Below, in pieces: positions 45,696 to 50,122 of a stretch of 64,000 bases of DNA. The stretch is from Eledone cirrhosa (Eukaryota). The notes under the pieces were generated by a model, which searched no databases, was not told where the DNA came from, and saw only the letters and a list, made by a program, of their open reading frames with translations. The translations under genes were made by a program, and so were the position numbers. Location: positions 26,412,001-26,476,000 of the forward strand of contig OZ024760.1 of NCBI GenBank assembly GCA_964016885.1. The letters are read 5' to 3'. Within the stretch, counting starts at the first letter, position 1. Each line of letters starts with the position of its first letter.

Positions 45696-46058
<363 letters not shown>

Positions 46059-46270
46059 TTAAGCTCCGTTACCTACATAGAGCACTCTTTTTTCCTGGAC
46101 TTTTCCGACGGAATTACTTCATCTCTCTCTATATATATATCATTCCTTTTATTTTGATCATGCTTTATTTTTATTTTTATTTTTAATTTCATTCGCACCG
46201 TTTCCTTTCGCTATATGTCTCTCCACCACTCCCCTACACACACTTTGAACTCTGTTCCCACACACTTCTC

Positions 46271-48329: not shown

Positions 48330-48384
48330 ACTGCTATATATATTTCAGTGACAGCCATCTTTGGCTGTGACCTCTTCAGGCAGT
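48330..48384 (-). ncRNA. type I hammerhead ribozyme
   Basis: Reverse complement: ACTGC CTGAAGA GGTCACAGCCA-AAGA-TGGCTGTCACT GAAA TATATA TA GCAGT AATAAA. Confidence 0.8.
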
Positions 48385-48495: not shown

Positions 48496-48535
<40 letters not shown>

Positions 48536-48769
48536 TTAGAAACACACAGATACATGCGGACACCCACATATATACATGAATGCATCCGCACCCAACTGTG
48601 AGTTAAGGGTGCCAACTTCACCGATGTTGCTCAATGAATGACTGGGACAGACCAATTCAGTTTGAACCAGACTGAACCAGTATCAGAGTTAAAAATACAT
48701 TATGAAGAGAGAAGAAACATTTAGATATAATTAGTAATAAAATGTATCATACCTAAACTGTTCCTAAAT

Positions 48770-48857
48770 TCCTCGACTACGTAGTTTCGTGGCATAAACA
48801 AAAACAATATATCAAAGATATAGAGTCCTTGCGAGGTCTGCCGACTTATCAAGAGGA
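48770..48857 (-). ncRNA. U3-A8 variant type I hammerhead ribozyme (copy 1)
   Basis: Reverse complement of the motif at 49304-49391. Confidence 0.75.
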
Positions 48858-49303
48858 TACCTCATTTTACTAGTCTCAAGAACGCGTCTACACGACGTGA
48901 GAAAGAATCCCAAAAGGCGGAGGGGGAGATAGTCACGCGATATAACGGTCGAGAAACAGAGCTAAGCCTCTTATAACCACGAAAAAAATACCACGGAGGC
49001 GGAGGGGGTATTCATATCGAGGCCGTAGAAGAGGTAGTGAAGAAGGCGAGAAGTATGAGTAATGGAAGCTTTCCAGTTGTCCCCACACTTCAAAGATTGC
49101 TCGACCAGAGGGAGTTATTAATACATTTAGAAACACACAGATACATGCGGACACACACATATATACATGAATGCATCCGCACCCAACTGTGAGGCTTAGC
49201 TCTGTTTCTCGACCGTTATATCGCGTGACTATCTCCCCCTCCGCCTTTTGGGATTCTTTCTCACGTCGTGTAGACGCGTTCTTGAGACTAGTAAAATGAG
49301 GTA

Positions 49304-49391
49304 TCCTCTTGATAAGTCGGCAGACCTCGCAAGGACTCTATATCTTTGATATATTGTTTTTGTTTATGCCACGAAACTACGTAGTCGAGGA
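49304..49391 (+). ncRNA. U3-A8 variant type I hammerhead ribozyme (copy 2)
   Basis: TCCTC TTGATAA GTCGGCA[44 nt]TGCCAC GAAA CTACGTAG TC GAGGA; predicted cleavage after C49386. Confidence 0.75.
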
Positions 49392-49894
49392 ATTTAGGAA
49401 CAGTTTAGGTATGATACATTTTATTACTAATTATATCTAAATGTTTCTTCTCTCTTCATAATGTATTTTTAACTCTGATACTGGTTCAGTCTGGTTCAAA
49501 CTGAATTGGTCTGTCCCAGTCATTCATTGAGCAACATCGGTGAAGTTGGCACCCTTAACTCACAGTTGGGTGCGGATGCATTCATGTATATATGTGTGTG
49601 TCCGCATGTATCTGTGTGTTTCTAAATGTATTAATAACTCCCTCTGTTCGAGCAATCTTTGAAGTGTGGGGACAACTGGAAAGCTTCCATTACTCATACT
49701 TCTCGCCTTCTTCACTACCTCTTCTACGGCCTCGATATGAATACCCCCTCCGCCTCCGTGGTATTTTTTTCGTGGTTATAAGAGGCTTAGCTCTGTTTCT
49801 CGACCGTTATATCGCGTGACTATCTCCCCCTCCGCCTTTTGGGATTCTTTCTCACGTCGTGTAGACGCGTTCTTGAGACTAGTAAAATGAGGTA

Positions 49895-49982
49895 TCCTCT
49901 TGATAAGTCGGCAGACCTCGCAAGGACTCTATATCTTTGATATATTGTTTTTGTTTATGCCACGAAACTACGTAGTCGAGGA
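49895..49982 (+). ncRNA. U3-A8 variant type I hammerhead ribozyme (copy 3)
   Basis: Same motif 591 nt downstream; predicted cleavage after C49977. Confidence 0.75.
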
Positions 49983-50048
49983 ATTTAGGAACAGTTTAGG
50001 TATGATACATTTTATTACTAATTATATCTAAATGTTTCTTCTCTCTTC

Positions 50049-50122
<74 letters not shown>

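Follow-up and report, generated by a model that had tools for sequence, protein, structure and literature searches.

Animal non-LTR retrozymes have reported unit lengths of 51-972 bp (bioRxiv 10.64898/2026.07.22.740005), and retrozyme circles are described from coral, mussel and axolotl (PMC7229834). Dimers of Xenopus retrozymes failed to cleave in vitro in eight of nine cases (bioRxiv 10.64898/2026.07.22.740005). For Penelope-like elements (PLEs), a hammerhead variant with a U3-A8 core has been published (PMC4209133), and a PLE studied in vitro uses two internal start sites, with both strands cut and extended and a dimer predicted (PMC11167929). In the same account, uncleaved RNA is the dominant substrate of a Poseidon PLE, and hammerhead mutants have no effect on insertion. 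The PLE tail is described as one-sided (PMC8557442), and fold-back has been proposed for the palindromes of rotifer PLEs (PMC3846280). Two questions are posed as open in this published work: how PLEs build insertions that are both tandem and inverted, and whether PLE enzymes copy animal retrozymes from circles.

The window analysed here, a 64,000-nucleotide stretch of the Eledone cirrhosa genome (assembly GCA_964016885.1, contig OZ024760.1, positions 26,412,001 to 26,476,000), contains an insertion at 48530-50053 built from a 591-nt unit. The unit is probably a non-autonomous, non-coding non-LTR retrozyme, a parasite of a Hydra-type PLE, copied by two-site priming from an RNA that is probably circular.

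Anatomy of the insertion and its hammerheads

The 591-nt non-coding unit is present head-to-head within (TA)n as 1.12 + 1.46 copies, arranged as follows in window coordinates.

48499..48532, no strand: (TA)n target, left
48530..49193, minus strand: B arm, 1.12 units (unit 369-591, then 1-441); its 3' end, site B, passes into (TA)n
48771..48856, minus strand: hammerhead of the B arm, identical to the other two
49191..49193, no strand: 3-nt overlap at the head-to-head joint between the two 5'-truncated arms
49191..50053, plus strand: A arm, 1.46 units (unit 1-591, then 1-272); its 3' end, site A, passes into (TA)n
49305..49390, plus strand: type I hammerhead of the A arm, U3-A8 core, predicted cut after 49386
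49462..49466, plus strand: internal copy of site A (start site), unit 272-276
49467..49631, plus strand: 165-nt 'tail' from site A to site B, built of stem-loops
49472..49532, plus strand: bulged hairpin, 5 nt past site A (B-arm copy at 48689-48629)
49631..49633, plus strand: internal copy of site B (start site), unit 441-443
49896..49981, plus strand: second hammerhead of the A arm, predicted cut after 49977
50053..50110, no strand: (TA)n target, right

The two passes of the plus arm are free of internal mismatches, and the minus arm, read from 49193 to 48530, differs from the plus unit at 2 positions. A sequence-only reading of the window had described two nearly identical, inverted, longer-than-unit copies that meet at a 3-nt joint and end in (TA)n on both outer sides, and all four points hold on re-measurement. 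Its right-hand end at 50053 also stands, whereas its left-hand end at 48532 falls 2 nt short of the true end at 48530, because the arm end overlaps a TA run. The (TA)n flanks hide any target-site duplication. The unit has a GC content of 41.5%, and its longest ATG frame, read round the unit, spans 75 aa. Across 94 + 24 loci, no open reading frame for reverse transcriptase and GIY-YIG endonuclease lies within the unit or is attached to it, and in no locus examined is the unit the terminal repeat of a coding element, a possibility that had been put forward for checking. The bulged hairpin that follows site A is a candidate recognition element for the reverse transcriptase.

Every unit carries a type I hammerhead (3/3 in the window), in which stem I is accompanied by a branched stem II domain of 57 nt and by a stem III that is palindromic, with a U3-A8 core in place of the canonical C3-G8. 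The cut site is GUC, and the predicted plus-strand cuts lie 591 nt apart, which bears out the claim of one type I hammerhead per unit with that spacing and adds the variant core. Among the fetched loci, 284 identical hammerhead motif calls are made, overlapping loci being counted twice. At gathering thresholds, Rfam returns 0 matches over the whole window, hammerheads included. The constrained hammerhead fold lies 1.1-1.4 kcal/mol from the local minimum and is compatible with a cleavage-type fold, and the computed energy of the stem III self-dimer is -12.9 kcal/mol. A plant LTR retrozyme is ruled out by the type I topology and the tandem units, in place of type III hammerheads in two LTRs.

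Over 40 shuffles, the circular fold has a z of -6.1 on the hammerhead strand and -1.1 on the opposite strand. Among 12 haplotypes, pairing is kept in 98.2% of 1,039 cells, largely via G-U exchanges. A single pair is changed on both sides and the observed score is reached in 10 of 500 shuffles, so that the pair counts support the structure weakly. The 30 hammerhead core columns are invariant across haplotypes that are 82-99% alike, while 100 of the 305 other columns vary; the first 14 core columns are fixed by the way most rows were picked, so the countable invariance is 16/16, in the 3' half. In the circular minimum-energy fold, unit 263-280, which contains site A, pairs with this 3' half of the hammerhead, a pairing predicted to be an off-state.

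Other repeats occur in the window. Just left of the insertion, a repeat with a hammerhead-like motif (48331-48383, minus strand) is very deep in public runs X3 and X5. At 45800-46120, a palindromic pair of short PLE-type ends lies in (TA)n, with a C3-G8 hammerhead on the plus arm (45974-46020); a 63-nt tail with the same bulged hairpin is confined to one of the two arms, and loci L037 and L084 contain relatives of this pair. Near 22764 (minus strand) and in L027, L088, L039, L070 and L093 there is a third hammerhead family, whose stem II is long, whose arms are inverted and whose 106-nt tail holds the same bulged hairpin. The open frames of 557 and 1,039 codons at 56763-61963 resemble, by eye, the ORF1 and reverse-transcriptase ORF2 of a non-LTR retrotransposon. 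A 129-bp tandem repeat (10.1 copies, 96% matches) occupies 30901-32203, with similar arrays in L112 and L171.

Family size, fixed 3' ends and the pairing of arms

In the 3.0-Gb genome of 1,796 contigs, a search with the unit gives 195 matches from the 40 scored of 598 candidates. Exact matches to a 22-nt hammerhead word number 5,981, against 0 for the reversed control, so the family is not a product of chance and the unit is not single-copy, which the sequence-only reading had named as a finding that would count against it. Extrapolation from the first 100 listed matches, which fall in 55 loci, gives about 3,300 loci in the genome. Head-to-tail tandem units are found at many dispersed loci. 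The 94 loci sampled comprise the 40 best-matching and 54 consecutive ones on contig C1, the latter forming a positional sample with 81.5-99.8% identity to the unit; the view that the window copy is very young is supported. The sole relative found by nhmmer, with the unit against masked loci, is an older non-coding subfamily of ~580 nt that keeps the hammerhead, 24 distinct loci of which were examined from 1,812 candidates. A pattern search for a shorter-stemmed hammerhead relative with the same stem III gives 5 matches, all of which read as family members (L105, for example). At L063, the entire two-arm insertion is tandemly duplicated 2.55 kb apart with identical junctions.

The 3' ends of the arms lie at site A (unit 266-283, mostly 276) or at site B (430-450, mostly 441) and are followed by (TA)n. 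The 5' ends scatter all round the unit: the cut site has 2 of 140, where 1.7 would be expected. The permutation of both ends proposed earlier thus gives way to 3' ends fixed at two internal sites and 5' ends that alone vary. Fixed ends shared by all genomic copies had been named as an argument against a circular template; this holds of the 3' ends and fails for the 5' ends. Fixed internal starts are made by a PLE reverse transcriptase in vitro (PMC11167929), and the fixed 3' ends do not exclude a circle.

Two inverted arms are present in 50 of the 94 loci. In 48 of these, including two with a very short B arm, one arm ends at A and the other at B; the remaining two (L060, L072) pair A with another end, and neither A+A nor B+B occurs. 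The 44 single-arm loci divide into 22 A, 21 B and 1 other, and under independent choice 48 mixed pairs would have a probability of 0.5^48, about 4e-15. The query used for the older subfamily brings a B arm into every locus; at its 20 two-arm loci this arm is joined by an A arm in 17 cases, a second B arm in 2 and an arm with another end in 1. The A+B rule is strong, not absolute. Junctions between arms overlap by 0-5 nt in 38 of the 49 listed, and all 49 inversions listed differ in junction. The insertions bear the signature of the PLE type, namely an inverted 5'-truncated copy, a one-sided tail and a microsatellite target. These results support the earlier proposal of two cDNAs primed from TA ends; the view that the inversion is not a chimeric-read artefact is likewise supported.

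In public runs X3 and X5, contigs show TA loose ends at 49466 and 49631, corresponding to sites A and B. A search of sequencing runs listed no RNA run with the unit. A 621-nt contig in run X1, of unrecorded type, equals 591 + 30, as expected from a closed assembly-graph loop; it is not counted as evidence, because tandem DNA would yield it too. Among the contigs listed for the public runs, none spans the junction of the window insertion.

Template, rival explanations and candidate helper

Like the anatomy, the copy number, the fixed 3' ends and the pairing, the haplotype shared by the arms and the exact junctions at the cut site are read directly from the loci. For 13 of 16 arm pairs, the closeness of the partner arm is equalled by at most 5% of the arms at other loci; the other 3 have short, uninformative overlaps. 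Variants confined to one locus occupy every unit of both arms at L047 (6/6), L048 (4/4) and L049 (7/7). In the positional sample, 12 one-locus variants are in all units of both arms, 16 more in all units of one arm and 83 in some units, the last class being expected from later mutation. Variants that fill every unit of both arms require a one-unit bottleneck. Arms exceed one unit in 88 of 140 cases (36 of 78 in the positional sample) and reach 7.2 units, in agreement with the earlier claim of longer-than-unit copying. At 257 crossings of the cut site, 0 indels occur within 5 nt. In 13 of 42 simple two-arm loci, the window locus included, neither arm is contained in the other (a test that left out the complex-junction loci L033, L082, L087 and L104 and the two A+other loci), and the second arm is therefore not generally copied from the first. 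Shared haplotypes, multi-unit arms, exact junctions and non-containment together point to a one-unit template read repeatedly, that is, a circle. A monomer circle leaves unexplained the rare variants present in exactly one unit of each inverted arm at L034, L040 and L044, for which gene conversion, a mixed template or polishing error may account. Furthermore, 91 of 325 shared variants are absent from some covering units, part of this being alignment noise near indels.

With the same helper and start sites, the template might instead be one or more uncleaved linear multimeric transcripts of a tandem donor, making a circle unnecessary at insertion. The preference of a Poseidon PLE for unprocessed RNA in vitro (PMC11167929) favours such a template, exact cut-site junctions are equally expected from it, and the one-unit-per-arm variants suggest that templates are non-uniform or that conversion followed. 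Arrays can, however, only lose length when a linear template is copied with 5' truncation, yet arms reach 7.2 units; the locus-specific variants found in all units of both arms place a monomer step somewhere in the lineage, and the 3' half of the hammerhead is invariant in 16/16 columns while 100/305 others vary. This makes a linear multimer unlikely. Template jumping is known for other retroelement reverse transcriptases, and repeated jumps between self-cleaved linear monomers would explain the monomer bottleneck without a ligase; the absence of indels at the 257 crossings and of a 5'-end pile-up at the cut renders this highly improbable.

Fold-back, in which the first arm would by self-priming be the template of the second, would account for the shared haplotype, and near-mirror 5' registers occur in 5 of 42 loci against 2.2 expected (p = 0.07), so that a minority of loci may fit. 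As a general explanation it has a very slim chance: it is contradicted by the 13 loci without containment, registers are uniform overall (KS p = 0.96), and one A end plus one B end is not predicted by it. Tandem arrays and shared variants can also originate at the DNA level, through a satellite, an extrachromosomal DNA circle or a rolling-circle DNA transposon. Such amplification, together with assembly artefact, has the slimmest chance of these alternatives, given that the 3' ends are strand-specific and fixed in (TA)n, that the 5' ends vary, that the RNA structure is specific to one strand, that each of the 49 inversions listed has a different junction, and that the X3 and X5 contigs have TA loose ends at the same two sites.

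For the preferred reading, copying from a circle by a PLE enzyme, the same genome offers a candidate helper. PLE fragments adjoin many copies of the unit, and genome searches with two such fragments give 64,682 and 71,956 candidates. In the candidate, the unit measures 3,531 bp and contains a 784-codon open frame, adjacent units differ from each other at 1 base, at least 4 whole units stand in tandem at one locus, and the exact hammerhead word has 2,162 copies. Its 3' ends are fixed at two positions 80 nt apart, and A pairs with B in 13/13 two-arm loci examined; in 6 of these, pairing is taken from facing ORF matches, only the outer ends having been fetched. Its hammerhead is its own minimum-energy fold, with a U3-A8 core, a long stem II and a palindromic stem III, and its bulged hairpin begins 5 nt past site A. 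By eye, it carries Hydra-clade motifs (RWR for RWK, DKT and a CxCx5C linker), CxxC and CxH near the end and no internal CCHH, and its targets are (TA)n. Near-perfect arrays of 4-5 whole 3.5-kb Hydra-type PLE units lie at G000:C1:437199000-437216500 and C1:91473242-91493733, with an inverted match beyond the array at the latter.

The bulged hairpin has 4 bp at its base, 2 nt bulged on the 3' side and an upper stem that co-varies. It begins 3-6 nt past site A in 9/9 tabulated sequences from six families (site A of L143 being assumed), and in shuffled DNA such a hairpin begins within a 10-nt window about 2 times in 10,000; the motif was defined post hoc on these families. The unit has no long homology to any PLE, the longest local match being 14 nt. 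Because the hairpin is post hoc, is not clear in the 310-nt family of L150 and is accompanied by no long homology, the enzyme of the 3,531-bp element is likely, not proven, to be the helper, and it is not singled out uniquely, the hairpin being common to several families. A young Hydra-type PLE with the same A+B rule, U3-A8 core and hairpin nevertheless supports the PLE reverse transcriptase acting in trans that had been suggested earlier.

A 758-codon Hydra-type family (L140-L149) is a weaker candidate: the hairpin is present, the hammerhead has a C3-G8 core and a short stem II, the 3' region is long and microsatellite-like, and Pfam gives a sub-threshold GIY-YIG match only. Neptune-like and Poseidon-like PLE fragments beside some copies have 3' ends without likeness to the unit and were set aside. 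The family of L150 (G000:C1:15423000-15428000) is a second retrozyme-like one, with a C3-G8 hammerhead and two inverted multi-unit arms in (TA)n that end at two sites about 35 nt apart.

In the proposed mechanism, a longer-than-unit genomic copy would be transcribed, and two hammerheads, probably dimerised by way of the palindromic stem III, would release a 591-nt monomer, which would then be closed into a circle. A PLE protein, presumably dimeric, would bind the structured tail between sites A and B and cut a (TA)n tract, whereupon each of the two DNA ends would prime a cDNA on what is presumably a single RNA molecule, one at A and the other at B. Both cDNAs would run variable distances round the template before being joined head-to-head with an overlap of 0-5 nt. 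More tentatively, Hydra-type PLEs may in general form a hairpin-bound complex that primes doubly at the edges of the tail, with both cDNAs rolling round one circle by strand displacement. The 591-nt circle might then be a minimal parasite (ribozyme, two start sites and hairpin) that switches between the hammerhead fold and the site A-paired fold. If true, double priming on one circle would bring PLE tails, inverted arms and tandems under one mechanism.

Comparison with Penelope-like elements and retrozymes

Retrozymes, their circles, the link to PLEs and a circle model for PLE tandems are already in print, as are inverted arms, the one-sided tail and two start sites. In the literature consulted, mostly open-access main texts, inverted two-site retrozyme insertions, a counted one-of-each rule and the bulged hairpin were not found; the supplements of PMC8557442 and PMC7229834 may list related families. 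Both open questions can be tested in one reaction, because a young 591-nt substrate, an intact enzyme, two mapped start sites and a candidate hairpin coexist. As a tool, an enzyme able to write a pair of multimeric cDNAs into (TA)n from a small circle would be of interest too.

The 591-nt family shares with animal non-LTR retrozymes, as described in PMC7229834 and bioRxiv 10.64898/2026.07.22.740005, tandem non-coding units that each carry a single type I hammerhead, a low GC content, copy numbers in the thousands and a length within 51-972 bp, so that its size is not the exception it had been taken for. A PLE is proposed as helper and circular RNA as template for both. Its fixed internal 3' ends, inverted two-arm insertions, (TA)n target and named cis-element are not described for retrozymes in the text consulted from these accounts. 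Its circle is predicted to block its own hammerhead through pairing with site A, whereas in most circles of animal retrozymes the hammerhead is predicted to stay free.

With PLE insertions (PMC3846280, PMC8557442 and PMC11167929), the family shares arms placed head-to-head, of which one is tailed, a pair of internal start sites that lie downstream of the hammerhead, and AT-rich or (TA)n targets. It differs in having no ORF, a tail of 165 nt rather than 30-40, and arms of up to 7 whole units; the PLE tail is described there as optional or often one-sided, whereas one of each end is counted here in 48/50 loci. The unit thus works like a PLE without being one, and does not carry the ORF of an autonomous PLE.

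The candidate helper resembles the Hydra clade PLEs of PMC8557442 (section 11) in its clade motifs, judged by eye, its hammerhead and its (TA)n targets; it differs in a 3.5-kb unit against less than 3 kb and in perfect multi-unit tandems, its clade being assigned by motifs. Cercyon PLE hammerheads of Schistosoma (PMC4209133) likewise show U3-A8 covariation and opposite-strand hammerhead pairs 100-700 bp apart; they are minimal, whereas the 591-nt unit has the 57-nt branched stem II and an 8-nt stem III palindrome between conserved pairs. MRC1 and other non-autonomous Chlamys PLEs (PMC8557442) are, like the unit, non-autonomous PLE derivatives with multicopy head-to-tail insertions. These match the 3' end of their autonomous partners by sequence, whereas the 591-nt unit shares only short motifs.
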